Assembly: GCA_963741205.1 (NCBI GenBank)
Contig: CAVUHW010000016.1
Span: 1 to 31,318, forward strand
Origin: Nitrospirota bacterium
GTDB taxonomy: Bacteria; Nitrospirota; UBA9217
DNA length: 31,318 nt
Reading direction: 5' to 3'
Positions 1-30,762 of the stretch are shown here, piece after piece (within the stretch, counting starts at the first letter, position 1; each line of letters opens with the position of its first letter). The position numbers and the translations under genes are program-made. The notes under the pieces were generated by a model. The model did no database searches. It was not told the origin of the DNA and was given only the letters and a program-made list of their open reading frames with translations.

Positions 1-19
1 TAAGGAGAGGGTAGTGGTC

Positions 20-43
20 AATCCGCAATCCGAAATCCAAAAT
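20..43. repeat. Short heptamer tandem repeat (AATCCGC/AATCCGA/AATCCAA)
   Basis: aatccgc aatccga aatccaa aat immediately downstream of the mutS stop. Confidence 0.6.
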
Positions 44-47
44 TTGT

Positions 48-2715: not shown

Positions 2716-2744
2716 TGATTAAATACTAGGGCCGCAGGGAGAAT

Positions 2745-3647
2745 TTATCGGCCAATTTTGCAATAACTCTTCTTAGCCCTTCGTTCCCGTGAAGTCGGAA
2801 GTCCATGCATTTGATGAGGGAAACAAGATTCAAAGACATGGATTCCCGATAGAACCATCGGCACTGACGAAGAAAAACATTTTAGTTGACTTCCCTCTCC
2901 TTCTTTATGCTTCACCTTCATTCCCAGCTTCTCCATCACCTGCTGAATGTCTTCCCAAACGAGTTTTTTGTCCCGGGGATTTCTGAGCAGGTAAGCGGGA
3001 TGGAACGTGGGCATGAGCGGAATGCCGTTGTAGGCGCGCCATTTCCCGCGGAGCGAGGTTATCCCCTCGCCGGTCTTGAGCAGCGTTTTAACGGCGACAT
3101 TGCCGAGCGCAACGATCACGCCGGGATTGATGGCCTGAAGCTGCTTTTTGAGGAACGGCTCGCATGCCTCGATTTCATCCGGTTCCGGGTTCCTGTTCCC
3201 CGGGGGCCTGCACTTCACGATATTGCAGATGTAAACGTCCTCCCGCGCGAGCTTCATCCCCTTGACGATGATGTCCGTCAGAAGCTGGCCCGCGGCGCCG
3301 ACAAAAGGCCTTCCCTGCTCGTCTTCTTCCTGCCCGGGGCCCTCGCCGACAAAGACGAGGACCGCTTTCGGGTCGCCCTCGCCGAACACGATGTTCGATC
3401 TGCCTTTGAACAGTTTGCAGCGCGTGCAGTTGCCGAGTTCCTGCGCGCACGGCTGCCAGACCGCCTGCCGGGCCTGCCGCTGCCGGGGATGTTTCGAAGT
3501 TCAACCTCCGGCGGGAAGGGGGCAGCCTTATTCGACCGCGCGCGAGCCTGAAGCCGTTTCAACATGACGCACCCCGAGCGCCTTTTGATACTCAAGGTGC
3601 GTCCTGACCTGGGTCACGATATCAAGAAACTCTTGTACGTATTTCAT
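2745..3647 (-). CDS. Uracil-DNA glycosylase, family 4 (frameshifted; true C-terminus probably near 2880-2910)
   Basis: VFGEGDPKA..FVGEGPG..ED..G.PFVG.AG, NIVKCRPPGNR, PTFHPAYLLRNP; N-term MKYVQEFLDIVTQVRTHLEYQKALG read from 3647; CTRCKL Fe-S motif near 3410-3430. Confidence 0.92.
2780..2870. repeat. Palindromic REP/MITE-like element (GTCAT..CCCG..CGGGAATCC / GGATTCCCG..GAC type)
   Basis: cgttcccgtgaagtcggaagtcca...tggattcccgatagaaccatcggcactgacg; related copy at 9986-10062. Confidence 0.65.
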
Positions 3648-3695
3648 CCATGGTAATGCTAACAGCGTTGTGTACCTCGAACCGCGCTCTCAATC

Positions 3696-3748
3696 TCCCC
3701 TTGAAGGGGGCTCAGCAGAATATGTCACCCTGCCCCTTCAAGGGCAGT
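3696..3748. repeat. Pair of inverted hairpins CCCCTTGAAGGGG / CCCCTTCAAGGG
   Basis: Two short palindromes that are reverse complements of each other, between nadK and udg. Confidence 0.5.
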
Positions 3749-3837
3749 GTTTTGGACTGCACCCTGTGATTACGAGTGCGTAAGCGCGAATGCAGGGTTT
3801 AAAAATGGGTAAATGTTTTGAACTCTGAACTTTATAT

Positions 3838-4690
3838 TTAATTCCCCCACTTGAGTTTCGTCCGGAGGATCTCGTAGTAGCTCTTTACGGGATGCTTGAT
3901 CAGTTTCATCTTGAAGCGGGACTTTTTGATCTCCACAACATCATGCTGCACGAGAGGAAATCCGATCTGTCCGTCGAGCGTGATGGACACGTCTTCGCTG
4001 GGCGAGGTAAGACAAACCTCGACAACGACCGTGTCGGGCAGGGCGATCGGCCTGTTTGACAGCGTGTGAGGGCATATGGGCGTCACGACGAAGCAGTGGA
4101 CCGTCGGATGGATGATGGGCCCGCCCGCGGAAAGCGAATAGGCGGTCGAGCCCGTCGGCGTCGCCACGATCAGCCCGTCGGCCCGCAGGGTCGTCAGATG
4201 ACCGTCGCTCACCGAGATCTTGAGCTCCATCATGCGCGCGAGCGCGCCCTTGTTGATCACCGCGTCGTTCAGCACCCGGTACCGCGCCAGGCGCCTGCCC
4301 TCGCGGATGACGCTCGCGGACAGCATCATCCGGTCCTCGGTCTCCAGTTTTCCGGCCATCGCCTTTTCGAGGTTGCCGTAGAGCTCGTCAAGAGACACCT
4401 CGGCCATGAACCCGAGGCTCCCGAGATTGACGCCGAAAATAGGGACGTCCGTGTGGGCGTCGGCAACGTGTCTGGCCGCGGACAGGAGCGTCCCGTCGCC
4501 GCCCAGGACGATCAGCATGTCCACGAGCGCCGGGATCTCCGCACGGTCATAGCCCCGCACCTTGATGCGCCGCGGCGGTCTCGTTGTCGATATAGACCTT
4601 CATGCCGCGCCGTTCAAGCCAGGCCGTCAGCTTCTTCGCCGCCTTCCGCGCCGCGGGGATGTTTTTTGCGATGATGCCGATTTTTTTCAT
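3838..4690 (-). CDS. nadK: NAD kinase (frameshift near 4560-4575)
   Basis: LGGDGTLL, GVNLGSLGF, LNDAVI, DGLIVATPTGSTAYSLSAGGP; start MKKIGIIAK at 4690. Confidence 0.95.
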
Positions 4691-4705
4691 AATCGATTAA
4701 GGCGA

Positions 4706-4860
4706 CGCTGATTTACGCAGACTGCAGTTCGCAGATCAGGCTTAATGCCTTCGTAAACGCCCTAAACTCTATGGATTGCATGAAGCCGCAGGTTTCAGCA
4801 TCAAAATACGTGCCGATTCTTCTAATGTTAATCTTGGTTCATCTGCGTCAATCTGCGTCC
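4706..4860. repeat. Intergenic element with inverted ACGCAGA(T)-type termini
   Basis: cgctgatttacgcaga at left, atctgcgtcaatctgcgt at right; the right arm supplies the tsaE stop codon. Confidence 0.55.
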
Positions 4861-5345
4861 ATAAGATCGTTTACGCCTTCAGGTTCCTGCCGCAGCTCTT
4901 CCAGCAGTTTCTGGTACCGCTCCCCTTCCGCGAGAAAACCGATCTCCCGGCTCTTGTCGTCGACATAGGTGAGATACACGCTGAGACGCTCCACGGGCAG
5001 GGCATCTTCCGCCCGGTCGGCCCACTCGATCACGGTAACTCCGTCGCCGCCGATATAATGTTCGAACCCGATATTCTCCAGTTCGTCGGGGTCCTTGATG
5101 CGGTAGAGGTCGATGTGGTAAAACGGCGTCCTTCCCTTGTATTCGTTCACAAAGGCGAAGGTCGGGCTCGTGATATATTGCGCGTCCACTTCGAGACCCA
5201 GCGCGATGCCGTAGGAGAAGTTCGTTTTGCCCGCGCCCAGGTCGCCGTAGAGGCAGACGGTGTCTCCGGGACCGAGCGCGCGGCCGAGCAGCTCGCCGAT
5301 CCGCCAGGTCTGTTCCGGCGTCGCGGTGATCACGCTGAACATCAT
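4848..5345 (-). CDS. tsaE: tRNA threonylcarbamoyladenosine biosynthesis ATPase TsaE
   Basis: GDLGAGKT, SPTF, HIDLYR, IEWA motifs. Confidence 0.96.
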   Translation of the reverse strand: MMFSVITATPEQTWRIGELLGRALGPGDTVCLYGDLGAGKTNFSYGIALGLEVDAQYITSPTFAFVNEYKGRTPFYHIDLYRIKDPDELENIGFEHYIGGDGVTVIEWADRAEDALPVERLSVYLTYVDDKSREIGFLAEGERYQKLLEELRQEPEGVNDLMDAD

Positions 5346-5800
5346 TCCGTCTGCCGCGCGCGGCCTTCACCATGTCGCGTTTTCCCACAATGCCCAGGAC
5401 CTTGCCGTTCCTGACGACCGGAAGCAGGTAGACCTTTTTCTCGTCCATGATCGTGGCGATGTCCACGATCGGAGGCGTCTTCCGTGATGGTGACCACCTT
5501 GCGCGTGCAGATCTCGCCGACCTTCGTGGCTGTCAGGCGCTTCACTTCCTGCTCGAATTTCTTCGAACTTTCGAGATAAATGGCGGCGTCAAGAAAGCTG
5601 ACCACCGTTGGGATGTGGAGCCGCTTGTTCCGGCTGATAAGATCGTTTTCCGTCACGATGCCGTAGAGATTGCCGGAATCGTCCACCACCGGCGCTCCGC
5701 TGATCTCGTTCTCGACCAGGAGGGAGGCCAGTTCCTCGATGGAGGTGTCGGGTTTCACGGTGATGACGTCTTTGGTCATGATGTCTTTCGCGGTAAGCAT
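5342..5800 (-). CDS. CBS-domain pair protein (frameshift near 5475)
   Basis: AKDIMTKDVITVKPDT..ISGAPVVD..GIVTENDL; second CBS continues as DIATIMDEKKVYLLPVVRNGKVLGIVGKRD. Confidence 0.9.
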   Translation of the reverse strand: MLTAKDIMTKDVITVKPDTSIEELASLLVENEISGAPVVDDSGNLYGIVTENDLISRNKRLHIPTVVSFLDAAIYLESSKKFEQEVKRLTATKVGEICTRKVVTITEDASDRGHRHDHGREKGLPASGRQERQGPGHCGKTRHGEGRARQTE

Positions 5801-5828
5801 AGTAACACCTCGATAGATAAGCTACTAT

Positions 5829-5949
5829 AACCACGGATGAACACGTGGACAAGATTAAAAATAATGATAGAAAATGCTTAAATTTCACTATCCTAGTCAA
5901 CATTTATCCAGCAATCAAACACGTGACTTTAACCGTGTTCATCCGTGCG
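5829..5949. repeat. Element with inverted CACGGATGAACACG termini around an AT-rich core
   Basis: aaccacggatgaacacg (5829-5845) and ccgtgttcatccgtg (5933-5947); the right arm contains the nnr stop codon. Confidence 0.65.
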
Positions 5950-7492
5950 TTATCACTATCGTTTCTTTCATCGCTTCCGGTATCTTCTCGATCAGGTCCC
6001 CGGCAATCATGGCCGCCTCGCCCTTTTCCTTTGCCGCAAGATCGCCCGCGAGCCCGTGGAGATACACGCCGAGGCAAGCGGCCTGCGCGGCAGGATGGCC
6101 CTGCGCCAGGAGCCCGCCGATCATGCCGGTGAGCACATCGCCGGTCCCGCCCGTGGCCATGCCGGGGTTGCCGGTCGAATTGATGAACATCTGTCCGTCC
6201 GGAAGCGCGACCACGGTCCCCGCGCCCTTGAGGACCACGATGACCTTGTGCTCCTTCGCGAACCGCGACGCGACGTCGAGGCGGTCCTTCTGCACGTCGG
6301 ACGATGACATGCTGACAAGCCTGCCCATCTCGCCCGGGTGGGGCGTCAGGATCACGGGCGCCTTTGCCTTTTTCAGGATGCCGGTGTAGCCGGCAAAAGC
6401 GTTCAAACCGTCGGCGTCGACGACCATGGGGACCGTCAGCCGCTGGACCATGTCTCGCACGACCTGTGCGGTCTCAAAGTGGGTCGAAAGCCCGGGGCCC
6501 AGCGCGACGGCGCTCATATGCTCCGCGGCCTTGAGCAGTTCCTCTTCGGACCCGACGCCCAGGGTGCCCTCGATGCTTTCCGCCGCGGGAACGCACATGG
6601 CTTCGGCGAGCTGCGACTGGATCACCGGGACGAGACCGTTCGGCGTTGCGACGCTCACGAGGCCGGCGCCGGCGCGGAGGGCGCCCCTGGCGGCCATGAT
6701 CGCCGCGCCTGCCTTGCCGGGCGACCCGGCAATGACCATCAGATGGCCGTAGTCTCCCTTGTGGCTGTCCCGCTTCCTCCGGTCTGCGGCGCCCCAGGCG
6801 GAGCCGCGGTCCAGCAGCCTGACCGCGATCTTTTCCTGCTCGATCACTTCCGGGGGGATCCCGATGTCCGCGACGCGGACCGTACCGGCGTACTCCGCCC
6901 CCGGATAAAGCACCAGCCCGCGCTTCAGGAGCGCCATCGTTACCGTGAGATCGGCCTTGATCGCCGCGCCCATGACCGCGCCGGTATCGGCGTCGATGCC
7001 CGTCGGGATATCGACGCTGACAACAGGCCTGCCCGATGCGTTCACCATGGCGACGGCCCGGGCATAGGCGCCCCTCAAGGGGGATGCGAGACCCACGCCG
7101 AGCAGGGCGTCCACCAGGACATCGGACCATGAGATGATGTCGGCAAGAGACCGGGCCGCGGCGTTTTCCCTGATTTCGACATCCGTCTTGCGAAGGATGG
7201 ACAGATTGACTTTTGCTTCGCCGGTTACCGCGGAAAAGGGTGCCAGGAGCGCCACGCGGACCGGCACGCCGCGGATCTTGAGCCTCCGGGCGAGCGCCAG
7301 GCCGTCGCCGCCGTTGTTGCCCTTGCCGCAGAGGATGCCGACCCTGACGCCGCCGAGACCGTCGAAGAACTTTTCCATCTCCGCCATGATCGCGGAAGCG
7401 GCGTTCTCCATCAAAACCGGGCCCGGGATGCCGAAACCCCTGATCGCCCTGCGGTCGATGTTTTTCATCTGCTGTGCGGTAACGATTTTCAT
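5939..7492 (-). CDS. nnr: Bifunctional NAD(P)HX epimerase/dehydratase (YjeF/Nnr)
   Basis: LMENA, GKGNNGGDG, DIPTG, SHKGDYG, DADGLN, LTPHPGEM, GGTGDVL; intact 517 aa. Confidence 0.96.
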   Translation of the reverse strand: MKIVTAQQMKNIDRRAIRGFGIPGPVLMENAASAIMAEMEKFFDGLGGVRVGILCGKGNNGGDGLALARRLKIRGVPVRVALLAPFSAVTGEAKVNLSILRKTDVEIRENAAARSLADIISWSDVLVDALLGVGLASPLRGAYARAVAMVNASGRPVVSVDIPTGIDADTGAVMGAAIKADLTVTMALLKRGLVLYPGAEYAGTVRVADIGIPPEVIEQEKIAVRLLDRGSAWGAADRRKRDSHKGDYGHLMVIAGSPGKAGAAIMAARGALRAGAGLVSVATPNGLVPVIQSQLAEAMCVPAAESIEGTLGVGSEEELLKAAEHMSAVALGPGLSTHFETAQVVRDMVQRLTVPMVVDADGLNAFAGYTGILKKAKAPVILTPHPGEMGRLVSMSSSDVQKDRLDVASRFAKEHKVIVVLKGAGTVVALPDGQMFINSTGNPGMATGGTGDVLTGMIGGLLAQGHPAAQAACLGVYLHGLAGDLAAKEKGEAAMIAGDLIEKIPEAMKETIVITHG

Positions 7493-7550
7493 AGAATTTA
7501 TGCTCCTGGCTCAAGCCTGCCGCTTACGTGTTCTCTGAACTTTGAGACTC

Positions 7551-7926
7551 CTATCCCACCAGCACCACCTGCGCCACGGCATACCCTTCGTCGTGCGAGT
7601 AGCTCAGGAGGATCTGTTTCACGCCTTTTAAGTCCATGAGGTCCTTCACCCTCCCCGAGATGTTCACGATCGGGCCCCCGCCCTCTCCGTGGAGCACTTC
7701 CATGTCCGTCCACTTGACGCCCGCGCTCCAGCCCGTGCCGATGGCCTTGAGCACCGCTTCCTTTGCGGCGAACCTCCCCGCGTAGTGCTGGGCGGGAAAT
7801 TTCTGCTCTGGCGCAGTACTCCCGTTCCCTCTGTGTAAACACCCGTTCAAGAAAGCCGGGATGGTCCTTTCCCGCTTTGTCGATGCGGCTGATCTTCACC
7901 AGGTCAACGCCGATGCCGACGATCAT
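7551..7926 (-). CDS. acpS: Holo-ACP synthase AcpS (frameshift near 7810)
   Basis: MIVGIGVDLV..RI..FLERVFT..E; AGRFAAKEAVLKAIGTG; LSYSHD; RBS GAGGGGGAG. Confidence 0.94.
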
Positions 7927-7957
7927 GATCTCCCCCTCGGTAAAACAAATTCCCAAT

Positions 7958-8049
7958 TCCACTCGCAGAGATGCTGAAACGTGGAAAATCAAAACACGAA
8001 TGAAATGGAAACGAATCTTCGCTTTGCGAACTCCGCGTCTCGGCGGTTA
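7958..8049. repeat. Intergenic element with inverted (C)GCAGAGA/CGCCGAGACGCGGAG-type termini
   Basis: ctcgcagagatgctga at left; ctttgcgaactccgcgtctcggcggtt at right. Confidence 0.45.
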
Positions 8050-8071
8050 GTATCGTTTCATTACGGTCTTA

Positions 8072-8776
8072 TCAAGCCCTCATATCCCTGACCGCCCGGT
8101 CCATACCCACCAGCGAGGCGCGCGAGATGATGCTGTGCCCGATGTTCAGCTCTTCCACTTCGGGAATGGCCGCGATCCTCGAAACGTTCACATAGTTCAG
8201 ACCGTGGCCCGCGCCCACGCGCAGCCCCAGGCCCGCGGCGAGCGTCGCAGCTTCGGCGAGTTTCGCGAACTCCCGTTCGCGGTCCTTCCCTTCCGGCGCG
8301 TTCGCATAAGAACCGGTGTGGAGCTCGACCCAGTCGGCGCCCGCCTTCCTGGCCGCGGCGATCTGTTTCTCATCGGGGTCGACGAAGAGGCTGACGGTTA
8401 TGCCGGCCTCTTTGAGGCGGCCGATGTAGGACTTCATGAAATCGATCCGCGAGGCGACTTCCAGACCGCCTTCGGTCGTGAGCTCTTCCCGTTTTTCCGG
8501 CACCAGCGTCGAAAAATCGGGCTTGACCTCCCGGGCGATCCGCTGCATCTCATCGGTCGCCGCCATCTCCATGTTCAGCAGGGTCTGGACGACGTCGCGC
8601 AGGAGGCGCAGGTCGCGGTCCTGCACGTGCCTGCGGTCTTCGCGGAGATGGGCGATGATGCCCCGGGCCCCGGCAAGCTCCGCAAGCGCGGCGGCGGCAA
8701 CGGGATCGGGCTCGACGCCTCTCCTCGCCTGGCGGATCGTGGCAATATGATCGATGTTAACGGACAAGCCGGGCAC
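8072..8776 (-). CDS. pdxJ: Pyridoxine 5'-phosphate synthase
   Basis: [54 protein letters not shown]; GTG start at 8776 after AGGAGG. Confidence 0.96.
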
Positions 8777-8852
8777 GCGGCAATTCCTCCTGACGATGTT
8801 CACATAACGATGAGGACGATTTTATCATCTCTCCGTCAAAATATCCAGAAGA

Positions 8853-9780
8853 ATGAACTACCCGCCACTGAACCATTTACATGGTTGCAGTGGGGGTTTC
8901 ACGGATCATAGAAGCATGCAGTCCCTGGGTAGTTCCCAAGGCGTGTCTTATCTGCTTCTCCCCGTGCGTAACTTCGGCCGGTTCCCGGCCTAGTGTTTCC
9001 TTCTTCCTTAGCCGCATGGCGCGTTTCTGATGCTTTACGGCAATTACGCCGGACACAAGCATTTCTATGCCGCGCTTCTTGATAACGAGAGACGCATTGG
9101 TATCGGCGTTTTCCGTAAAGCCACAGCTTTGGCAATCGAACACCGCCTGTGAGAAGGAGACATACCATTTCCCGGACTCCCGGGTAATGGTGATAGCCGC
9201 CGGAACCTCGTACTCGTCGTGAGCCTTGAACTTAAGTTCGCCCAGATCGACCGACTTTGTGCCAAGCATCAGCCGGTGCTCATATATTGTTTTGTCCTGC
9301 CGCTGTTTTGAACCTCCAGTAGGAACGAACCTGAATAGCTCGCTGGTAATCCAGACGGACTGCCGACCCGCCTTCTTTTGATAGAGCAGGGCGACCAGAC
9401 AGTCCTGTCAGGTACCTCTTGTAGGCGCCCATGAACCTGGTTGCGCCGTTTCTTAGCATCTTGAGATGGCACATCTAGAAACGGAGTGAGTTCCTTGTCC
9501 TTGAACTGGGCGTATTGCTGATCAATCGGCGGCTGTAGTCCGGTCAGCGACAGCGAATGATTCCGGAAAGTACGGAAATAACGCTCTTCGGCAACCTTGG
9601 CGTTGTAGATAAGCCGCTGGCAGCCCATCCACTGCGCGAGAATATCGGACTGCTCCGTTGTCGGGTAGCAACGGAATTTTATGCCGCTTGAAATGGCCAT
9701 GATCATAATATAGGTGAGGCTGCATGAAAGCGCAACTAAATAAAACGTTGCCGCCCTCAGCCTATATTGTGAGGCTAAAT
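8853..9780 (-). mobile_element. IS200/IS605-family (IS1341-like, tnpB-only) element, degenerate; left end approximate
   Basis: tnpB remnant followed by right-end hairpin GAAACCCCCACTG..CAGTGGCGGGTAGTTCA; candidate left-end hairpins at ~9757-9777 and 9800-9818; no tnpA recognised. Confidence 0.8.
8877..9700 (-). pseudogene. tnpB: TnpB (IS605 OrfB) with large internal deletion removing RuvC-I/II and the first Zn-finger CxxC
   Basis: GIKFRCYPTTEQ..WMGCQRLIYN, VPSQ.LRNG, SGKWYVSFS joined directly to QAVFDCQSCGFTENADTNAS; only ~270 codons. Confidence 0.85.
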
Positions 9781-9908
9781 ATCGTTTTCCGTAGCACAAG
9801 CATGGCACAAATCCATGCCCAAATCAGTCCGCTTGACCCCCTCCTGGCGCTTCGCCCCTAGCAGAGGGAATGCGCGGACTTTAGGTCATGCCGAAAAGTT
9901 TTTCATGG

Positions 9909-18219: not shown

Positions 18220-18394
18220 TGAGCAAGTAGAACACCATGGGATATGCAACAGTGTAGAATTCCTTAATGCATTTGCCCTGCAGTTGATCCGCCCCAGGTG
18301 AGGTTAATATATCCCTGCAGCAACAGAATTTCATATGACTACCCGAAGACTGACCTTGTGTATTGCCACGTCATTGTTTTAAAGAGGAAGTTGG

Positions 18395-19520
18395 ATGTCT
18401 GAGCTTAAGAAAAGAACGGCGGTAAATATAGGAATTACCGGCATGACGGTACTTTCTACCTCCGCCGTTCAATTTTTTTCAAGTATCATCCTTGCGAGGC
18501 ATCTTCTACCCACGGACTACGGCATCGCAGGGTTCTCTCTCATATTCATCAATTTTATGGCCCAATTCAGCGATTTCGGCATGGCGAACGCCCTCATTCA
18601 AAAAACGGATGCTGATGATGATCTACTGTACACGGGCTTTACGCTCAAGATCCTGTTCAGTGTGCTTACCTTTGTGTTTCTGGTTACTCTTGCACCTATA
18701 TCCCAATTTTTTACTGACATCCCGGAGATTATCTCGGCAGTCCAACTGCTCTCTTTGGAATTTGCTCATCTCTGTGTTTACCTTTCTTCCACAGGTGACT
18801 CTCACGAAGGAAACTGGGATCTATAGAACTCTCCTACCCGCAAATTATAGGCGCGACAGGAGGCGCCTTTTGTGCCATCGTTATGGCTTACGCGGGGTTT
18901 GGCTTCTGGAGCATCATCGCAGGCTCTCTCATTAACAGCCTGGGCATCACGATGGCGTTGAATCTCATACGGCGACTCGAAATTTCATCTTCGCTTTGCA
19001 AAAGATCGTGCTCGTCACCTGCTTTCGTTCGGCAGCCATCTTTTTATACCAGGCGTCATAGCATTTTTCATCTTCAATGCTGACAATTTCGCCATCGGCG
19101 CCCTCAAAGGGTGCGGAACAGCTCGGCTACTATGCCATAGCTTTCAATTGGGGTTCGCTCATTTGTGTCCTTCTTGCAGGTATTGTTCATCAGGTGCTTT
19201 TCCCTACGTTCTCTAAGTTTCAGCACGACCTATTAGCAATGAAAGGGGCATACCTCGAATCGCTGAAATATGTTGCCTTCATCGCGGTGCCCTTCAATCT
19301 CTTTCTCGCCGTATTGGGCAGGGAGTTCCTCTATCATATCCTCGGCGGTAATACTGAGAGGTGGCTTCCGGCTCTGCAGCGCTGCAGATACTATGCCTGT
19401 ATGGAGTTTTTCGGGCATTGCTTGAGCCGTTGGCGAACGTAATCACCGGGATCGGAAAACCCAGCCTATTCATCAAGACTTCCCTTCTCGTTGCGGTGCT
19501 TCAACTGACACTCCTCTATG
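18395..19520 (+). CDS. wzx: Wzx/PST-family polysaccharide flippase, frameshifted and truncated at the junction
   Basis: ILARHLLPTDYG, FSDFGMANALIQ, GFGFWS, LGYYAIAF, VLFPTFS; sequence changes character after ...LQLTLLY. Confidence 0.85.
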
Positions 19521-20355: not shown

Positions 20356-23300
20356 TCAGGAGGGGATCGCGCTCTGGTGGTCATCGATGAAATTAATGCT
20401 CCAGACAGATTCAGCGGTTGGTGCCCCTCTGCCCGCTGCCGGAGCGCGTTGGTGCGAAGCCACGCGAGGTCGGTCTTGGTTCGCAGTGGCGGTTGAGGAC
20501 TTCGTCGAAAGCGTCTTTAGCTTCCTAGCCAGCGTTCCTTCGAAACGAGGGCCTTCGCGACAGGGGGCAAGCCAGAGTGATCGCATTATCTCCTGCCTCC
20601 CGCCCGGTAGTCCCCCTCCCTCCAGTAACCACGATTCACGCAAAGGATGGCGCATCGTCCACCAGGAAACCTACCTCGTCATCGTCCACCCGCCGAAGCC
20701 ACGCGCAATCCCGGCCATCGGGCGAGAACTCCAGCCAGAAGTAGGGCCTCTGTCCTGCATACGGTAACTGGGATTGCAATAGTTCACGCTCGTGGCGATC
20801 TGGAGGGCCGGACCGTGCGGTCGTCCCGATGCTGGCCAGGGTCCGCCCGTCGGGACTGAAGCGCGAGGCGAGGCGCCTTTACTCGTATGCCCCTTGAGCA
20901 CCGCGGGTCACCGTGGCCGAGGGTAGATGCCCAGACCGTAATGTCACCCATTCCGAAGGCGGCCAGCAGACGCCCATCGGATGAAATCACCTTGTCGTTG
21001 GGGTATCCATCAGTGGTTCGGAATCGTCTGAGAAGAGTTTGAGGTTCTCACCTTCGATGCGCCACAGTTGCAGATGAGTTGCCATCCTCACGTGAGCAGA
21101 TGTTCGCCATCGGCTGCGAAGAAATGGAGCGGTCAGGCGGTTAACGTTCGTAAGCACCCATTTGGCGACGCCCGTAGGCAACTGCCAGACGGTAGTGGCT
21201 TGTAAAACGCCGGCTGAATCTTTGGTGAGCGCGAGCGACCAGTTCGCACAGGGAGTCAAAGGAAAACAGGGAAAAGTGGGATGAACGACGGCCCGCAATG
21301 CAGGCTGGGATGGAGCAAAGCAATCGTTCAGAACGTCGATCCCAAATTTCCAGTCCTTGCTCGTCAACTCGCCCAGAGTCCCTGAAACTGTCCGTATAAT
21401 CGAAACGCTGCCTAACCGGAGTGGATAGGTGATTCCTCTGGCGGGCAGATTGGCACTTGCGCTACGGTCGTCTCCAGACTAAGATAGAGCACGGCCGGGC
21501 CGCATGCAACGCGCCAGATAAAAGTCACCAATCCTCCGACCGGAGCAGCCCACCGACCGGGACAGAGCCCACGGGGATGCGCGGATTGCGAACCGCTTCG
21601 CGCCGCGGTTGGCGTCGGATCCCACAACTTGACCATCCCATCGTAACCCCCAAGCGAGAGACAGCCGCTTCCCATCGGGGGAGAAGGCCACGTGAACACC
21701 TCGTCTGCCTGCCCTCGGAACGTGTTGAGCAGTTCCCCGGTATCCACTTTCCACATCATGGTCGTCTGATCTGGACTGCAGGTGGCCAGCATCGCGCCGT
21801 CCGGTGAGAATGCGCCGCGATGACCATGTCGGTGTGCCCGGTCCAGCACGTGGAGTTCCTTCTTGGTGTTGAATCCAGAGCCGAATCTCCAATCCGCGCT
21901 GACCGGGAATCGCCAAGGTGCGGTTGTCGGACGACAGCGCGATGAACGGTCGGGAATACCGCTTAATGGGAATCTTGTCGGGAAGCATGCCGATTTCCCG
22001 CAAATCTGGAAGCTTGAGCAGCCGGATCGTGTCGCCAACCAGCACGGCCAGCCGGCTGGGATCGTCCCGAAGGCAAGCTGCAGATACAAGTCCCTGCGCA
22101 CACTCGGCGGCCCCGACAAAGGGAATTTCAGCCGGTTACCGACCAATTTGAGATATCCCATACCATCAACGTCTGTTCCGCTTCCCACGGAGTTCTCCAA
22201 CTCGGCAGCTCGGCGGCTGCTTTCCAGTCAGGAGAACTTCCGTCGGGAGAGAAGATACCGGGGGCGGCGGCCTCTGGCAACCGGCGCAATTCGGTGAAGG
22301 AGCGGGCGTCCCACACGCGAACTTCGGTCAGGTAGCCGGCGGCCAGGAGATCGCCAGTGCGTGAAAACGACAGGGAAGAACTCGGTGGCATCTGAAGGAC
22401 GCGACCTCGCGGCGGAGTTGGAGGTCCAACATCTTGGTGATCCCCTTTTCCCCGCCTACCACAACGTTCCGGGCATCCGGAGCGAGCGCAAGGACCCAGA
22501 GCCATATTTGTGTGGCCCTGCATGCTGAACAGCTCTTCGCTCCAGCATTGTTCCGAGAGGTGGCGCCATTCGAAACCCCGCAGGTCTGGTTGGCCGGGCT
22601 GAGGAACGTGATTCTGAGCAGGGAGCGCGCGAGTCGAAGGTTGTCCGTCTTCAAGGCCTGGTGGGCGAGGTTGATGTCCGCGGCGTAAAGCCGCTCCCGC
22701 GCGGTTGCCTCATTGTTCTGCGCGAGCGTGGCATTGGCATCCGCCCGCTGGGCCAAAGTCAGGTTCTCGGTGGCGAGCTCGCGCACGATTTTCGTCTGGC
22801 GCGCCTGCCAGAGATAAAGCCCGGCGGCGAGCGCAGCGATGCGGTGACCACGGCACCGGCGCGCTGGACGAAACGAAGCCGGCGCTCGAGCGCGCATCCG
22901 GGCCACGGACTTGCCGCTTTGCAGCAGCGCCAGGTCGGCGTGCATTTCGGCGGCGGATTCGTAGCGCTGTTTCACGTCCGGCGCGCAGGCGCGGAGGAGG
23001 ACTTCGTTGAACTCGGCCAGCGCGGCGCGGTCGGGCAGTTCGGTGATGCCCGTGGGCAACTCGGGAAACTGCTGGCGGTCGTGGCCGGTGCTGATTTCGT
23101 AGAGCACCTTGCCCAGGCTGAAGAGGTCGGCCTGCACCGTGCCCGGGCCTTCCGGCGGCAGGTAGCCTTCGGTGCCGACGAACGACATGGTGGCTTCCGC
23201 CAGCGCGACGAGGCCGATGTCGGCGAGCTTGGGAATGCCGTTCACGAAGACGATGTTCGAGGGCTTGATGTCGCGGTGGACGAGGCCGTGGCGGTGGAGG

Positions 23301-23792
23301 TGCTCGAGCGCCGTGGTGAGGGCGAGGCCGAGGCGGAGGCATTCGTCCACCGGCAGGCGGCCGCGGAGGAGGAGTTCGCTGCGGAGATTGCGCGGGGTGT
23401 AGCTGGCTTCGTCAATCGCCTGCGCCGCGGCCCATGTCGTCGGCCAGTTCCATGACGTAGTAGAAGCAGTCCGGGCCGCGGCCGACGTGGAGGATGTTGA
23501 GCTGGCTCTCGTGGCTGCGCGAAACCGGCTCGAAGCGCTGCATGCCGGCGAACTCGCGCTCGAACGGGCGGTCGTCGTCGAAGGCGCTGCCGGTGGACGA
23601 TCTTCACCGCGCGGTAAACGCCGAGGACGTTGCGGGCGAGCCAGACCTCGCCATAGCTGCCCTTGCCGATGCGGCGGATGAGCGTGTGATCGGGGACGGG
23701 AATGGGCGGGACGTCGCCGGCGCTGCGCCGGAGGGGGCGTGGCGGAGCCCCACGGGGTCTTGATCGACGGGCAATGGATCGGGCTCAGGCAT
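20356..23792 (-). CDS. Ser/Thr protein kinase with C-terminal WD40 repeats (many frameshifts)
   Basis: IGKGSYGEVWLARN, RAVKIV, FYYVMELAD, HRDIKPSN, ADIGL, GTEGYLPPE, DLFSLG; one hydrophobic segment; RERLYAADINLA; multiple GH..V..AFSPDG..LA..D..W repeats. Confidence 0.88.
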
Positions 23793-23999
23793 GATGGTCA
23801 AAGCGTGGTGCCACGGCGCGGCGCGGGATCCGACGCGGAGCCGGAGCGGCGCAGTTCGCGGCGGATCGAGCGCGAACAGTTCACGACGGAGCGCGGCAGC
23901 GTTCGCGCGCTGGCGTGACGCGATAGCGTCGCCAGCGGCGTCCGCAGCGGCCAACGCGCGCGGAGCCAGCCCAACCAAGCGTTCGCGGAAAGGAGTCGT

Positions 24000-24667
24000 T
24001 CACGATTTGACCTCGGTTTTCTCCGCCTGCGCTTCGAGGCGTTTGACCTCCTTCTTGATCAGCGCGCCGACCCGGTGGCGGGCGAGATAAACCTGGGCGG
24101 CGTTGACTTTGAGCAGCTGCGTCACTTCCGCCACGGGCAGTTCACGCAAGCACGGAGAGATCGAAGATCTGAAACTGCTTCGGCGCGACCTGCTGCTTCA
24201 CGCGCTCGATGGCGGCGTCGAGCAGGTTCTTCTGCCATTCTTCCTCCCACACGGAGTCGAGTTCGAGGCTGGCCGGGTCGGGCACGCGGGCGATGGTGTC
24301 CGTGCGGCTGGTGTCGTCGCGAGCTCGCGGCGACGGGCGCAGCTTGGGTCGGTGCGTTTGCGGAAATGATCAATGATGCGCCGGCGGGTGATGAGGCAGA
24401 GCCAGTTCTTGAAGGAGCTCTTGGTGCGGTCGTAGCCGCCGTCGCGCATCTGTTTCGCCACGGCGACGACGGTTTCCTGCACCACGTCCGGGCCTCGGCT
24501 TCGGACAGCCCGGCCTTGATGGCGACGGCGTAGATCAGCTTCCAGTAGGTGTCGAAAAAATCCTGCCAACTGCCGTGGTCGTCCCAATTGCGCAGGCGCT
24601 TCACCAGACTGGACCGCGTGGCGGCCGGGTCTTCGGCGCCGAGCACCGGCACATCGGATTTGCGCAC
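24000..24667 (-). CDS. ECF sigma factor (TRxSLxxRL..W..F type, kinase-associated); frameshifted
   Basis: TRSSLVKRLRNWDDHGSWQDFFDTYWKLIY, DVVQET, SFKNWL..ITRRRIID, region 4 ELPVAEVTQLLKVNAAQVYLARHRV; GTG start just after the promoter motif. Confidence 0.9.
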
Positions 24668-24671
24668 AGAC

Positions 24672-24702
24672 ACAGATTCGCAGCAGCGGGAGATTTCTTT
24701 CA
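24672..24702 (-). promoter_or_regulatory. Putative autoregulatory ECF promoter TGAAAGA-N15-CGAATCTGT
   Basis: Directly upstream of the sigma gene; second copy at 20203-20233. Confidence 0.7.
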
Positions 24703-24819
24703 AGCTTTTCGAGGTCTGGAAGAGATGACTTAAAACATGCCAGCCGCTGCGGGGCAGTCGGACACGGTTTGCAATAGTCCAACTTGCTCGCAGGCTGCGA
24801 GGAAATCCCCTGCGGCATC

Positions 24820-25002: not shown

Positions 25003-25746
25003 CTACGGAGCAAACGCGCTAAACAGCGCCTGCATTTCCTCCGCGACGTGTGCCGGATCGCTCAACGTCTGGGCAATTTCGTCGCGCAGCAGTTCGCGAT
25101 AACGCCTCCGCAGCCGATGCACCGCCGTGCGCACCGCGCCTTCGGAAACGCCCAGATCGGCGGCGGCCTGGGGATACGGGATTGCGCTCTTGCCGACCGT
25201 GAGAAACGGCTTCAACAGCTCGAACAACCGGTCATTGCCTTCCGCCGCGCACTCGGCGCGCAATCGTTCGATCACGCATGCCAGCAAGGCCAGCGCCCAT
25301 TCGCGGTCGAAGGCCTTGTCCGGACTCGGCTCGGTCGGTGGCGGCGATTTGAAATTGCGTGTCCGCCGTCTGCCAGTCGAGCGACAGATGCGTCGCGCCG
25401 CCGCCGCGTTTCTGGCGCTGCGACTTGTCCCATTCGTTGGCGAGAAAATGTTTCAGCGACGCCAGCAGGAACGCGCGAAACCGTCCGCGCTCGGCGCTCA
25501 AGCCTTCCAGATAATTCTTCTCCAGAAATCGCGCGAAGAAAGCCTGCGTCAGGTCCTCGGCGTCCTCCTTCGAGTGGCCGCGCCGCCGGACGTAGGCGTA
25601 GAGCGGAAACCAGTAAGTGCGGCAAAGCTCCTCCAGCGCGTGATCCGATTGCGGCGTGGACGTTTGCCCGCCGCGAGCACGACCGTCCAATGCGTCGTGG
25701 CGAAGACATCGCCGGGCGCGTGTGAGGTTCGCTGCGTCGAGGTCAT
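25003..25746 (-). CDS. ECF sigma factor (FxTTHWxVV type); frameshifted
   Basis: FATTHWTVVLAA, LCRTYWFPLYAYVRRRG, DAEDLTQAFF, GRFRAFLL, QKRGGG, FDREWA, AVRTAVHRLRRRYRELLR. Confidence 0.92.
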
Positions 25747-25883: not shown

Positions 25884-26606
25884 TCAATACCAAAAATCAA
25901 CCCCGATACCTGAGGTGCGCCGGGTCATCTGTTTGAATTTGCGCCAGCCCACGTGGCCGTCGAGGAAGAGGAGGTTGCCTCCCGCCGGGCGACTGCCTTC
26001 CAGGTGCGGGGCCCGCGCCGGCTTGTCCCAGTTCACAGGGATCTGTGCGAAGTTGTTATTAAGCGAGATCGTCGCGTCTGCGGCCAATTCCCGTTCGGAC
26101 ACACTGGGCGTGTAACGGTTCGTGGCCGTCACGATGGAAGTCGGCAGCAGGCTGACATTGAAGTTGGAACTGGCCAGCCCCGGTGCCTGATTGAGGGCTA
26201 ACACGCAACCCAGCACTTTGTAGGTGGTGCTGTTCCGGACATCGAAGTCCCAGATGTATTGCGTATTATTGAATTCATTGAAGGACGGACAATAAAGAAT
26301 ATCCCGGCTGAATCCCTGCTGCAGCAGGGGCGTGACGACCGTGCGGAGGTCGGCGTCCCATGGCCAGTAACCGGAGGCGCAGACGGGCAACCGCTCCCGG
26401 TTGTCGTTGGCGTACATGTGGAGGGCGAGACCCACCTGCCGGAGATTGCTGGAGCACTTGACCCGCCGGGCTTTCTCCTTGGCGCGGCTGAGCGCCGGCA
26501 ACAGCAGGGCGGCAAGAATCGCGATGATCGCCACGACCACCAATAACTCGATCAAGGTGAAACCCAATCGTCCGGCGCGCGTGGAAGAAGTGCGGGTTGG
26601 TTTCAT
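25884..26606 (-). CDS. Prepilin-type N-terminal cleavage/methylation protein with C-terminal H-X9-DG-type motif (DUF1559-like)
   Basis: [40 protein letters not shown]...[11 protein letters not shown]. Confidence 0.92.
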
Positions 26607-26635
26607 CACAAGTCAGTCAACTCAGGCTTTGGCGG

Positions 26636-26844
26636 TCAGTTTAGAACTCCTTCCGCGCGCCACGCAAGGTTGACCATTGATGAATGTCGCCGACGTTTGG
26701 GACGAAGAATAAGACCCATGAACCCGCCGCCGAGCTGATCAATCACATGCCATATTCGTCGCCCGGGAACTGGAAGTGAATCAACGAACCGAAGACCCAC
26801 AGCGTCGGGACGTGAAGCAGGTAGAACCAATGATTTGTTTTCAT
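26636..26844 (-). CDS. Small hydrophobic protein translationally coupled to the kinase (frameshifted/possibly truncated)
   Basis: ATGA overlap at 26841-26844; MKTNHWFYLLHVPTLWVFGSLIHFQFPGDEYG then a hydrophobic SWVLFFVP segment. Confidence 0.4.
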
Positions 26845-29800
26845 TGCGCTTTGCCTGCAAGCACCATCTTGTAGCGAAGCTTCACGCCGCGGGGCTTTTC
26901 GGTGAAGCCGGTGATCTGCAGCAGGCCCAGTCCGCCTTCGCGCGTGCGAAAAACCCAGGTGCTTGGCAGTTTCCCCCAGGTCTGAAGCGCGGGGGCATCC
27001 AGCTTTTCGACGTCTTGCAACCGACCGGCGATCGCGGTTGCTGGCAGGCGGTCCCAGTCCGTGAGCGAGGCGTCGGCAGCCGTCATGCCGGGGCACTCCA
27101 ATCCGTCCTGCCGCCACATCAAAGCGTCGAAACCCCGCTCTGCCATCCAATCATACTTGAGGGCATAATTGCCTTCCAAACCGCTCGGAAGATCACCCAC
27201 TTCTCCCCGGTCGAAGTCAATGCAGTCGGATTGTCCGCTGGTGACGGTGTAAATCACCCGCTCAGCCACGTGGGCCGAAGGCAATCTTTGGAGGAACGAT
27301 CGCCGCGGGAGGTGTGGCATTTTGCACCAGTTTGTAGCGCACCCTGACACCGCGCGGATTGTCGGTGAACCCGGTGACTTGCAGGAGACCGAGCCGGCCA
27401 TCCCGATTTTTGAAGCCGAAAGTGTAGAGCGTGGGATTGTCTTTTCCGAACTTCACCCGCAAATCGGGGGTGTTGTCGCGTAATGCTTCCACCAGTGCCT
27501 GCGGCTGGTAATTTCCCACTCGCTCCGCGGCAACGTGATCATGTTCTGCGCCAGTCCATAAAGCCAGCCGTCATCGGCATACGAGAAGTCCGCCCTGTGG
27601 CGTGGACCTTCAATCCAAGTGAATATTCTGTCTTCGGTTTGGACCGCTTGGTCGGGCTTGGTCAACGGAGTCCGGCAGTACTTCCACCTGTCCGGAAACC
27701 AGTATCCATCGCGCTGAAAATTGGGTATGGGTTCCGCTCGATCACCGGGCCGAATGATAATGCCGGCTCTCCGATTTCAGCTGGGGATTTCGCCGTTGGC
27801 GCTGTCAACGCAGCACCCATCGGAAACACCTGGCTGGGATAAATCGCGGCTGGCTTCCTGGTCGAGAAGCTCCACGCCGTCAGAAGCAAGGCAACCGCCA
27901 TCAGCAGACCAAGGATCAGGGTGGGTAACACCCAGCTCTGTCTCCGGTTCGGGTATCCGGCCGCCTTGCGTTTCGCTGAGACGACCTGTAGGGCGGCGAT
28001 CAAGGTGGCATTGATCAAGGCGAGCGCAAGAGCACCACGCAGCGGCACCCTCCCGCCCGTCAGCGCGGAAATAAAGAGGATCACGACGGCCATGAACCCG
28101 AATAGAATCGCCCAGAGGGTGAACGCTCCCGGCCAGAAAGTTGCGAGCCGCCCGTTTTTCTCTTCGACGAGTTGAATGGTTTGCCACGGCCGACGATTCT
28201 GATTTGCCTCCGCCTCGCCCATTGTCGGCGGGGTGCCGGCGGTGCTGCGCTGTTTGCCCCATGCGAGCCAGCCCGTGAGGAGGCCCGCGACGCCGCCGAG
28301 GAACAAGCCAGCCACTGCGCCCAGCGCCAGGTTCAACGGTTTGTTCGGTCGCACCGGCCGGCTGCCCGGCTGCGCGTGCTCGACAATCTCGATCATCGAG
28401 GTCTTCGGCAAAGCCCGGTCAATCCGTTCCGCTTCGAGCTTCATGTTTAGAATCCGACCAAAGGTGATCAACTCTTCCAATTCGCGTTTCTTGTCGAGCG
28501 AGTACGGGCGGCTCTTTTCCGAATTCTCCCGGTCCCATTTCTGCGCGTCCGGGACCGATTTCTTAAGTTCGTCCACTTGCGCCTGCGTCATGGTCACTTC
28601 AACCTCCAGCGCTGTCATAATGCCCTGGATATTTTCCTCCAATGTCCGACTTCAATTTTTCGATCTGCCCTTTTAACCCTCATATACGTGGGATGCGTGG
28701 GGGCGAAATCTTTCTCCAGACCTAGCATGGTCCACTCCGCCGAGCTTATCTGGTTTAGCAATTCCGTGAGGCGGGAGTCTTGTCGGGACCGAGGCAGCGC
28801 CTGCCGCAGTTCGTCCTTGGAGAGTTTCTTCAATTGGGCGAGTTCCGCTTGGAGCGAGACGAGGCGTGCCTCGTTCTCGATTTTCATCGCTGTGATCCTT
28901 CGCAGCGCCTCACCGTTCATCAACCGGGTCGGCCCGTTCCCGTCGGCATCCACGTCGCTGATATTCAACGCATCGCGCAGTGCTTCTAATTCCTTCCGGG
29001 CCTCGAGAATCTTGTCCTGCTGTTCCTGGTAACGAGCTGATCCCGCCGGAGCTTAGTTTGGCCGCTGCTGCGTCTGCTAATCGGAAGTCTTTGTAGGTTT
29101 CCGCAACCGCATTGGCAATTTTCGCCGCCTCCGCCCGGTCTTCACTGTAAACCGTGATTTCAATCAAACTGGTGTTACGAATCGGGCGCAGCGTCATGCG
29201 CCCCTTGAGCATCCCGATGTCGCGTTTGAGTTTTGACCCGGCCTCAATCTGGCGCCCGACAGGTTTTTCAAGTCAAGCTGTTCAACGACGTTGCTGAGGA
29301 CCATCTGGGATCGAATGGCTTCAAACTCGGTCTGGATGAAAAACGGGTCGTAACCGGAACCATGCGGCTGCCTGCCAAGCTTTCAAGTCGGTGGTGGCGT
29401 GTTCGATCTTGATGCGAGCCGTGCTGGCGAAAGACTCAGGCATGAGGAACGTCACGAGCGCCGCAACCAGAAAAATCAACAGCCAGACCAAGACTGCGAC
29501 CACCGCAGCACTCCGGAATGGAAACGCCCTTGTCACCATTGGCGGTTTCGCGGCGAGCAGTGGTGGATGGCCTTCCGAAGTTCGCGCGGCGTCGAGCGTT
29601 GCCCCACTTGATGCGTTTGGCGGGAAACAGTGGGCCCGGCTGGTTCCCGGGCACTCCGCAAGTCTGTCGCAATCGTCTCCACCTGCGTCTTGAGCATCGC
29701 TGGCTTGCTGGTAGCGGAGTTCCGGTTTCTTCTCCAACGCGCGCAACACGACTTCATCGAGGCGCACGTCAATCTGGACTTTCTTCGACGGCGGCTCGAG

Positions 29801-30762
29801 GCGTTTGCCGGGCAGTTCGCCGGTGAGCATCTGGTAGAACACCACGCCCAGCGCGTAGATGTCCGCGCGATGATCCACCTCGGCGGGATGCGCGACCTGC
29901 TCGGGCGCCATGTATTGCGGCGTGCCCATGACCTTGCCGGCGTCGGTGAGCGCGGCGGTCGCGCCCGTCACCCGGCTGTCGCCTCTCCCCATCCGATGGG
30001 CAGAGGGTGTCCGACGGACGGTGCGCGGTCCGCTCGCCACCATCTTCGCCAGGCCGAAATCCGCCACCTTCACCCGGCCCGGCGGTCCAGCAGGATGTTC
30101 TCCGGCTTGATGTCGCGATGGACGATGCCCTGGTCGTGGGCGAATTGCAGCGCGTCGCAAATCTGCGGCACGATGGCCAGCGCCTCGCGCGGCGAGACGC
30201 GGCCGGCGTGCAGCAGCTGCCGCAGGTTCACGCCGTCCACGAACTCCATGAGGAAGTAGTAGAGTGGGACAGGCTTCGCAGCCTGTCTCTGATCGACTGG
30301 CTGCCAGGCGTCTCAGCCAAGACAGGCTGGAAGCCTGTCCGCACCTTGCACCTGCCCGAATTCGTAGAGCGTCACGATGCCGGGATGATTCAGCTTGGCC
30401 AGCGCCTTGGCTTCGCGGGCGAAGCGTTCGGCAAACGCCGGATCGTCGCCGATGCCCGGCGGCAGGATCTTCAGCGCGACGATGCGGTCGAGTTGCTTCT
30501 GGCGCGCCTTGTAGACCGCGCCCATGCCGCCTTTGCCGATGAGTTCGAGGATTTCCAGTTGCGGGAACAGCGGCGCGAGTTCGGCCACGGGCGGCGGGCT
30601 GAAGGCGGCTTGCTGCGCCGCCGGTGACGGTGTCGGCCGCCGCGCCTTGCTGAGCAGGCAGGCCGGGCAAAGGCCGGCGAGCGCGCCGGTAGGCAGCGGC
30701 GTGCCGCATTGCGGGCATTTCCGGGCGTCGGGCGGGGGCGGATTCACTTCGCGGTCATTCAT
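26841..30762 (-). CDS. Large membrane Ser/Thr kinase with Wzc/GumC-like periplasmic module and duplicated C-terminal domain (multiple frameshifts)
   Basis: CPQC..CPACLL N-term; GKGGMG, ALKIL, HRDIKPEN, DFGLAK, GTPQYMAPE, DIYALG; TM; FASTARIKI, TEFE.I.S, RNTSLIEITVYS, AAKIANAVA.Y; AQP..PVRPNKPLNLALG; further TMs; two GLLQ.TGFT..PRGV..RYK units. Confidence 0.85.
29978..30030. repeat. Palindromic CCCTCTCCCATC.GATGGGAGAGGG-type element inside the kinase activation segment
   Basis: cctctccccatccgatgggcagagggtgtccgacggacggtgcgcgg between DFGLAK and LT..G..MGTP. Confidence 0.7.
30264..30344. repeat. REP doublet inside the kinase N-lobe
   Basis: gtgggacaggcttcgcagcctgtc ... gacaggctggaagcctgtccgcac, 81 bp, inverted arms each a hairpin. 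Confidence 0.8.

Follow-up and report, generated by a model that had tools for sequence, protein, structure and literature searches.

A Hanks-type kinase with a Wzc-type periplasmic module, encoded near an ECF sigma factor gene at the end of a contig binned as Nitrospirota

Gene organization of the locus

The window analysed here is the whole of a stretch of 31,318 nucleotides (positions 1 to 31,318 of the forward strand of contig CAVUHW010000016.1, NCBI GenBank assembly GCA_963741205.1) from a genome binned as Nitrospirota bacterium (GTDB lineage Bacteria; Nitrospirota; UBA9217). Close to its right end, on the minus strand, lies a gene that joins a Hanks-type Ser/Thr kinase domain to a complete periplasmic polysaccharide co-polymerase (PCP) module of the Wzz/Wzc type, and an extracytoplasmic function (ECF) sigma factor is encoded two genes downstream. 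A preliminary description, made from the letters of this DNA alone, had proposed that positions 26841-30762 are one gene for a Hanks kinase, a PCP module, extra transmembrane (TM) spans and an outward-facing repeat; these coordinates are right, with a single reading path from an ATG (30762-30760) to a TGA stop (26843-26841), and intact relatives with the same order of parts exist.

The gene is not readable in one frame, and the frameshifts already recognized in the preliminary description are present, but the gene is more broken than that description implied (Table 1). Guided alignment to intact relatives places the breaks from the N-terminus to the first TM span (TM1) at about 30650, 30613, 30077, 29692 and 29531, that at about 30077 interrupting the kinase domain; those in the PCP module, from alignment to the canonical protein P0001 (see below), lie at about 29385, 29359, 29246, 29038, 28671 and 28637, and those in the C-terminal repeats at about 27615, 27512, 27496 and 27267. 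The kinase insert that bears the in-frame TGA varies in length in the relatives L067 and P0074, and the N-terminal CxxC pair is kept in both and in P0097. Hanks kinases are recognized by a glycine-rich loop, a VAxK lysine and the HRD, DFG and APE motifs, and in the translation this catalytic set is complete. TM1, which had been put at about 29450-29515, was found as a hydrophobic span close to there. The topology puts the kinase in the cytoplasm and both the PCP module and the C-terminal repeats in the periplasm, in agreement with the preliminary description.

Domain assignments

The Pfam scan was performed on 10 stop-to-stop pieces of the gene (cut-offs of 31.7 bits for Pkinase, 27.7 for GNVR and 25.5 for Wzz). 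Pkinase was above cut-off on three of the pieces (40.6, 58.3 and 47.1 bits) and reached 94.5 bits once the gene was read through the breaks; GNVR was just above cut-off on one piece (28.2 bits, E 1.8e-6), and Wzz remained below cut-off on a piece cut by a frameshift (15.6 bits, E 0.021). One piece gave weak coiled-coil-type matches only, and five gave no family at all.

The PCP module was identified by a frameshift-aware alignment to P0001, a canonical protein of 723 amino acids (aa) with precomputed Wzz, GNVR and P-loop bacterial tyrosine kinase (BY-kinase) families. The stretch from 29515 to 28286 is collinear with residues 24-441 of P0001 (263 of 408 residues identical, 64%; six frame breaks); these residues span TM1 to the second TM span (TM2), so that the module is complete in the window gene, with two TM spans flanking a periplasmic domain collinear with known PCPs. 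The Wzz/GNVR homology proposed for the periplasmic region is thus present, and of the three families that had been expected from a Pfam run, Pkinase and, narrowly, GNVR pass and Wzz stays below its cut-off, and the whole module aligns to a protein that carries both Wzz and GNVR. The absence of a BY-kinase was also borne out: no P-loop family was found on any of the 10 pieces, the BY-kinase part of P0001 has no match in the genome, and a tblastn search with P0001 finds this locus only.

PCP proteins have been studied as parts of the capsule and O-antigen machines, regulated by a BY-kinase of their own or by none. The window protein shares with Wzc and other PCP-2a proteins (E. coli Wzc, GumC/ExoP-like) TM1, a periplasmic base with long coiled coil, the GNVR/Pro-Gly stretch and TM2, but lacks their C-terminal P-loop BY-kinase and tyrosine cluster, and has instead an N-terminal Hanks kinase, three extra TM spans and a periplasmic repeat. 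Where P0001 enters its BY-kinase after TM2, the window gene continues with a short loop, three hydrophobic spans and two domains of about 140 aa. Wzz (PCP-1) and PCP-2b proteins also carry the module without a BY-kinase; unlike the window protein, they have no cytoplasmic signalling domain.

Table 1. Features of the kinase-PCP gene and of the two genes downstream of it (window coordinates)
Feature	Position	Strand	Basis or remark
Whole receptor gene	26841..30762	-	Read through ~15 frame breaks and one in-frame TGA
CxxC...CxxC pair, zinc-ribbon-like, N-terminal	30652..30717	-	Weak Pfam DZR/Zn_Ribbon matches below cut-off
Hanks-type kinase domain	29700..30555	-	Pkinase above cut-off on three pieces
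Kinase motifs	HRD 30120-30097; DFG 30061-30044; APE 29926-29900	-	Read from translation
In-frame TGA	30313..30315	-	Within variable insert between kinase strands
TM1	29444..29509	-	Hydrophobic span aligning with TM1 of P0001
Periplasmic PCP (Wzz/Wzc-type) domain, long coiled coil, six frame breaks	28337..29443	-	64% identity to P0001
GNVR match running into TM2	28283..28441	-	PF13807, 28.2-28.5 bits, cut-off 27.7
TM2	~28336-28259	-	Hydrophobic span
Three further TM spans	28138-28061, 28033-27974, 27934-27866	-	Hydrophobic runs, one frame
Periplasmic domain of ~140 aa, two copies	27766-27292 and 27297-26862	-	Copy 2 85% identical to L067 domain
Prepilin-type/DUF1559 gene, between kinase and ECF	25884..26609	-	TIGR02532, GspG N-terminus, PF07596 match
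ECF sigma factor, two frame breaks, likely output partner	25003..25746	-	TIGR02937 match

Intact relatives

An exhaustive search with a 329-aa piece of the gene (27665-28651) among 1.84 billion representatives returned 518 proteins at E<=0.001. Domain matches among 166 proteins comprised four with a kinase (P0074, P0097, P0145, P0148), 29 with a BY-kinase, nine with a BlaR1/M56 N-terminus and three with a vWA/YfbK tail. Intact proteins of the same layout, which occur in Verrucomicrobiota, are P0074, L067, P0145, P0148 and P0171-P0175. P0074 (1460 aa) begins with the CxxC pair and continues with Pkinase, Wzz (27.4 bits, which passes), GNVR (27.4 bits, just short of its cut-off), one more TM span, the same C-terminal domain and leucine-rich repeats, and its EpsF match is full-length (residues 566-982, E 4.9e-27); in L067, a kinase of 996 aa, the PCP is short and the C-terminal domain is present. 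Among the 120 best relatives of the PCP part of L067, five have precomputed Pkinase and Wzz, two more have Pkinase and a match to the PCP stretch, and two are named 'serine/threonine protein kinase/capsular polysaccharide biosynthesis protein' at source; about 110 are ordinary BY-kinase proteins, several of them labelled Verrucomicrobiota. The kinase-PCP architecture is therefore real and has already been met by automatic annotation.

Orthologues in the same genus were not found: the 329-aa piece had no close match in 40 relatives, and a DNA search within the genus gave short kinase matches only. When 201 Verrucomicrobiota genomes were searched with a whole kinase-PCP protein, 11 of them yielded 18 matches in total, none reaching beyond the kinase part (residue 442 of 666); scoring was limited to six candidates per genome, which makes these numbers uninformative on prevalence. 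No paper was found on a Hanks kinase fused to Wzz/GNVR; the main text of PMC11032199 contains neither 'Wzz' nor 'GNVR', and its supplementary architecture tables may list such a fusion.

Other proteins of Verrucomicrobiota carry the same PCP module without a BY-kinase and with a different signalling or binding partner, i.e. a metalloprotease sensor or an unknown domain at the N-terminus rather than a kinase. Nine proteins of about 690-760 aa (P0016, P0076, P0088, P0096, P0100, P0110, P0114, P0125 and P0143), one of them labelled Verrucomicrobia, have a BlaR1/M56 peptidase N-terminus and a full PCP. P0113 and P0141 (also P0139 and P0156) are long proteins that start with an unknown domain and end in a vWA plus YfbK_C tail, and the order of their PCP-like stretches is rearranged. 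In P0097 (1204 aa), the kinase is followed apparently by a tandem array of three short PCP-like modules, with one TM pair per module.

The C-terminal periplasmic domain (about 140-165 aa) has no Pfam family and occurs in one to four copies in many related kinases (loci L024-L067). An AlphaFold2 model built from 23 aligned copies had a mean predicted local distance difference test (pLDDT) score of 87.9 and a predicted template modelling (pTM) score of 0.82; its nine best matches in the PDB were all HmuY-like haem-binding proteins, and weak (E 0.01-0.15; template modelling score 0.49-0.54). The model thus suggests an HmuY-like fold, as a lead only.

Proposed coupling to an ECF sigma factor

With P0074, 80 loci were found, mostly in metagenome-assembled genomes of Verrucomicrobiota, and these hold 91 kinase open reading frames (ORFs). 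A same-strand homologue of the window ECF lies within 1.5 kb of 75 of the 91 (upstream in 45, downstream in 30), and the proposed coupling of the kinase to the downstream ECF is supported by this synteny. The window ECF is of the downstream kind, its sigma-2 piece being matched at E<1e-50 by 22 of 30 downstream ECFs versus none of 43 upstream ones. At the closest locus, L067, an ECF gene 86.7% identical in nucleotides (nt) to that of the window lies 73 bp downstream of the kinase, which provides what the preliminary description had asked to be sought, a protein of the same architecture with an adjacent ECF gene; at L090 the gene order is that of the window (kinase, DUF1559, ECF). Eight of the 91 kinase ORFs have a PCP-like module, 12 the C-terminal domain and two both, so that the ectodomain is one of many in this family.

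Passages of PMC7826278, PMC13147305 and PMC8999054 list ECF43, ECF59-62, ECF217, 267 and 283 as kinase-associated groups and describe direct phosphorylation of EcfP and EcfK. In the systems treated there (PknT/EcfP, PknS/EcfK of ECF43, planctomycetal ECF59-62, and ECF217), a membrane kinase gene likewise stands beside an ECF gene, with no anti-sigma factor and with variable ectodomains. The window kinase differs from these known ECF-coupled Hanks kinases in having a PCP module as its ectodomain, for which no paper was found. According to the pertinent part of PMC13147305, the acidic DxxD of sigma-2.2 is replaced in ECF43 by uncharged residues and a phospho-threonine. The window ECF differs from ECF43 here: it and nearly all neighbour ECFs keep an acidic DAEDLTQ-like sigma-2.2 motif, contrary to what defines ECF43. 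Any action of the kinase on the ECF would involve a different site or a different route from that in ECF43; phosphorylation of the ECF by the kinase is proposed by analogy only.

The 18 ORFs that neighbour six PCP-bearing kinase loci belong to the beta-lactamase (2), TPR (2), PD40 (2), GH115, radical SAM, NTP_transf_3, UDPGP, RhaA and CN_hydrolase families, and six have no family. Two beta-lactamase-family genes (L067:8101-8844 and L031:9143-10273) each adjoin a PCP-bearing kinase/ECF pair.

Origin of the PCP module

Kinase-fused PCP modules are full-length (window, P0074), intermediate (P0145, P0148) or short and without coiled coil (L023, L031, L056, L067, L074). Quick trees were computed for 52 and for 64 rows, and a careful one for a subset of 28 that retained every one of the nine kinase-linked rows and members representing each clade; partial or rearranged envelopes (L028, L041, L045, P0106, P0113, P0139, P0141, P0156, P0057, P0129) were dropped before the 64-row tree. 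The window PCP forms a clade with P0001-P0004 inside the BY-kinase proteins (support 100 in the quick, 100/99 in the careful analysis), while that of L067 groups with P0145 and P0148, and the kinase-linked modules were united in none of 200 bootstrap trees. On the careful tree, the approximately unbiased (AU) test rejected a clade of window and L067 (p 0.003) and one of window, L067, P0145 and P0148 (p 0.0028).

In the alignment columns that the window PCP has in common with L067, its identity is 65.5% with P0001 and 48.8% with L067, whereas window and L067 share 83-91% of residues in the kinase and 85% in the C-terminal domain (copy 2); in DNA the kinase is 80-88% and the C-terminal domain 83% identical, and the PCP stretch has no match. 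These sequences are most simply read as the outcome of a module swap, joined at TM1 and TM2, in which a resident BY-kinase Wzc gene probably supplied the PCP in place of a shorter PCP-like ectodomain. The ECF-coupled kinase family, with its variable ectodomains, has probably acquired PCP modules at least twice. The earlier statement that the Hanks kinase takes the place of the BY-kinase holds for the layout but probably not for the history, in which kinases acquired PCP modules.

Nature of the frame breaks

Within the window, the breaks cluster at both contig ends, and this indel-rich state of the ends calls for caution on genome quality. Elsewhere in the genome, rpoB is intact (an open frame of 1358 aa). 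Differences between the window and L067 fall mostly at third codon positions, and after re-framing, the ratio of non-synonymous to synonymous substitution rates (dN/dS) against L067 is 0.105 for the kinase N-lobe, 0.157 for the C-lobe, 0.121 for the C-terminal domain and 0.145 for the ECF. Such low values would not have survived the neutral time required to gather about 15 indels; the most likely cause of the breaks is therefore assembly error at contig ends of poor coverage.

A housekeeping gene at the other end of the contig has the same pattern. A second copy of mutS (mutS1; window 51-2772, minus strand) is in seven pieces with 17 frameshifts, and an intact copy lies on contig C17; the two are identical at 809 of 912 residues (88.7%), with a dN/dS of 0.174 and with 67, 41 and 184 differences at codon positions 1, 2 and 3. 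Window 1-9152 as a whole is 89.8% identical in nt to C17, and outside mutS the indels are clustered, several 500-bp bins being without any. On account of the 89.8% identity, two related populations seem to be present in the bin.

Coverage of ORFs per contig did not separate the error-rich contigs. At 80% likeness, four sequencing runs yielded only short kinase pieces from other organisms. In some of these pieces there is an additional base at 30077-30080, the site of a frame shift in the window, which is no evidence on the source organism.

Affiliation of the contig end

The last ~10 kb of the contig hold two kinase-ECF pairs and the DUF1559 prepilin-type gene, a set typical of Verrucomicrobiota and Planctomycetota. 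DUF1559 is present in one of 15 genomes of the genus, namely this one, and has dozens of matches in the genome of L067; the genome contains three Pkinase loci, two of them within the window. The right end of the contig probably belongs to another phylum, and its gene content suggests that about 10 kb of Verrucomicrobiota type sit in a Nitrospirota bin either through a chimeric join or as a transferred island. The tetranucleotide signature (left part 0.92, right part 0.81-0.85, background 0.846 +/- 0.128) does not decide between the two.

The junction between Nitrospirota-like and Verrucomicrobiota-like sequence lies between 18.2 and 21.0 kb. Near this change there is a Wzx/flippase-like gene (18383-19439, plus strand) that is split among three frames and lies in a stretch of low GC content; its best identity within the genus is 38% and it has no match in the genome G041, so that it does not place the junction.

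Proposed function and alternatives

We propose that the gene encodes, on its own, a transmembrane receptor kinase of the ECF-coupled Hanks family common in Verrucomicrobiota and Planctomycetota, in which the PCP oligomer would set the activity of the kinase towards the ECF; we put the probability of this reading as a whole at about 0.6. The PCP modules of Wzz and Wzc form ring-like periplasmic oligomers, an octameric ring in Wzc/PCP-2a, and by analogy the module of the window protein may form one too. Such a ring would bring the N-terminal kinase domains together for trans-autophosphorylation, the kinase activity would be set by the oligomeric state or by the state of the ligand-binding-like C-terminal domains, and the kinase would then activate the ECF encoded two genes downstream. 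What is new is an ECF-coupled Hanks kinase with a Wzc-derived ectodomain, the kinase and the PCP families each being known; the window copy is a poor exemplar, on an error-rich and possibly chimeric contig end, and intact relatives are better objects of study. If the proposal is true, a PCP wired to a kinase and an ECF would link the assembly of envelope polysaccharide directly to gene expression; sister families wire the same module to BlaR1-type proteases. The family would also offer a natural experiment on the function of the PCP ring without its usual kinase and, for the ECF field, an added ectodomain type for kinase-coupled sigma factors whose activation differs from that of ECF43.

Several observations weigh against this proposal. 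Oligomerization and phosphotransfer are inferred steps of the mechanism, and the acidic DAEDLTQ of the window ECF makes the ECF43 phospho-switch inapplicable to it. None of the 18 neighbouring ORFs at the six PCP-bearing kinase loci belongs to the Wza, Wzy, Wzx or glycosyltransferase families, and the earlier suggestion that the receptor co-assembles with or senses the capsule export machinery found no backing there; co-assembly would be a guess. The junction of TM2 with the three extra TM spans is covered, among the 1.84 billion representatives, by the ORF of the window gene itself and part of P0097 only, and the exact form of the window protein is a singleton. No sequencing run contains the stretch (best share of words 0.06), which leaves the reading of the breaks as errors an indirect one. 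Finally, when the AU test was first applied, to the quick tree of 64 rows, for which the constrained search reached a better likelihood than the free search, a clade of window and L067 was not rejected (p 0.83), and the groups submitted to the AU tests were named after a tree had been seen.

Two alternatives concern the role of the ectodomain. A broader one, for which the chances are well short of even, takes the Wzc-type ectodomain as a mobile Verrucomicrobiota cassette that connects periplasmic rings like those of polysaccharide assembly to at least three outputs in the cytoplasm (Hanks kinase to ECF, BlaR1-type protease, vWA), with a recent full-cassette swap from a BY-kinase Wzc in the window gene, by which the polysaccharide status of the envelope would be turned directly into transcription. 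The protein could also be a working polysaccharide co-polymerase, with the Hanks kinase replacing the BY-kinase as phospho-switch for oligomer cycling and export, and the ECF secondary. The PCP is indeed complete, shares 64-65% of its residues with canonical BY-kinase Wzc proteins of Verrucomicrobiota type and branches inside their clade, and the genome has no other GNVR or Wzc-like gene, albeit probably not the true host of this one. The kinase family, however, is defined by its ECF pairing whatever the ectodomain (75 of 91), the PCP modules of the closest relatives are shortened and lack the coiled coil, and not one scanned neighbour is an export or glycan-synthesis assembly gene; we consider a working co-polymerase unlikely.

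Two others concern the integrity of the gene. It would be a decaying pseudogene, on an island that a Nitrospirota genome had acquired horizontally from Verrucomicrobiota, if its breaks and TGA were real, and the similar state of every neighbouring foreign-type gene except DUF1559, the confinement of DUF1559 to this genome of the genus and the small number of Pkinase loci point that way; against such decay stand the low dN/dS values (0.10-0.16) that the gene and its ECF give after re-framing, which do not fit the neutral time for so many indels, the same pattern in the mutS copy, and the intact catalytic motifs, which together make it improbable. Slightly less probable still is an assembly chimera, in which noisy Wzc reads would have ended up within a kinase gene. 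The error-rich contig end, the possible join of two organisms in the contig, the closeness of the PCP to canonical Wzc proteins and its lack of a DNA match to L067 between flanks that match at 80-88% are all compatible with a splice, but two switches exactly at TM1 and TM2 would be needed, with strand, order and membrane topology kept, and the same full-length layout is intact in P0074.

Further features of the window

A second sigma-like gene (24703-24000, minus strand) is followed by a second Hanks kinase gene with WD40-like repeats (23797 to about 20990, minus strand); both genes of this pair (~20990-24703) are multiply frameshifted, and the arrangement is of the type with the ECF upstream of the kinase. 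In the left part of the window, an insertion sequence-like element with TnpB-like ORFs (8850-9890) has at least 15 further copies on other contigs, at 87-98% identity.

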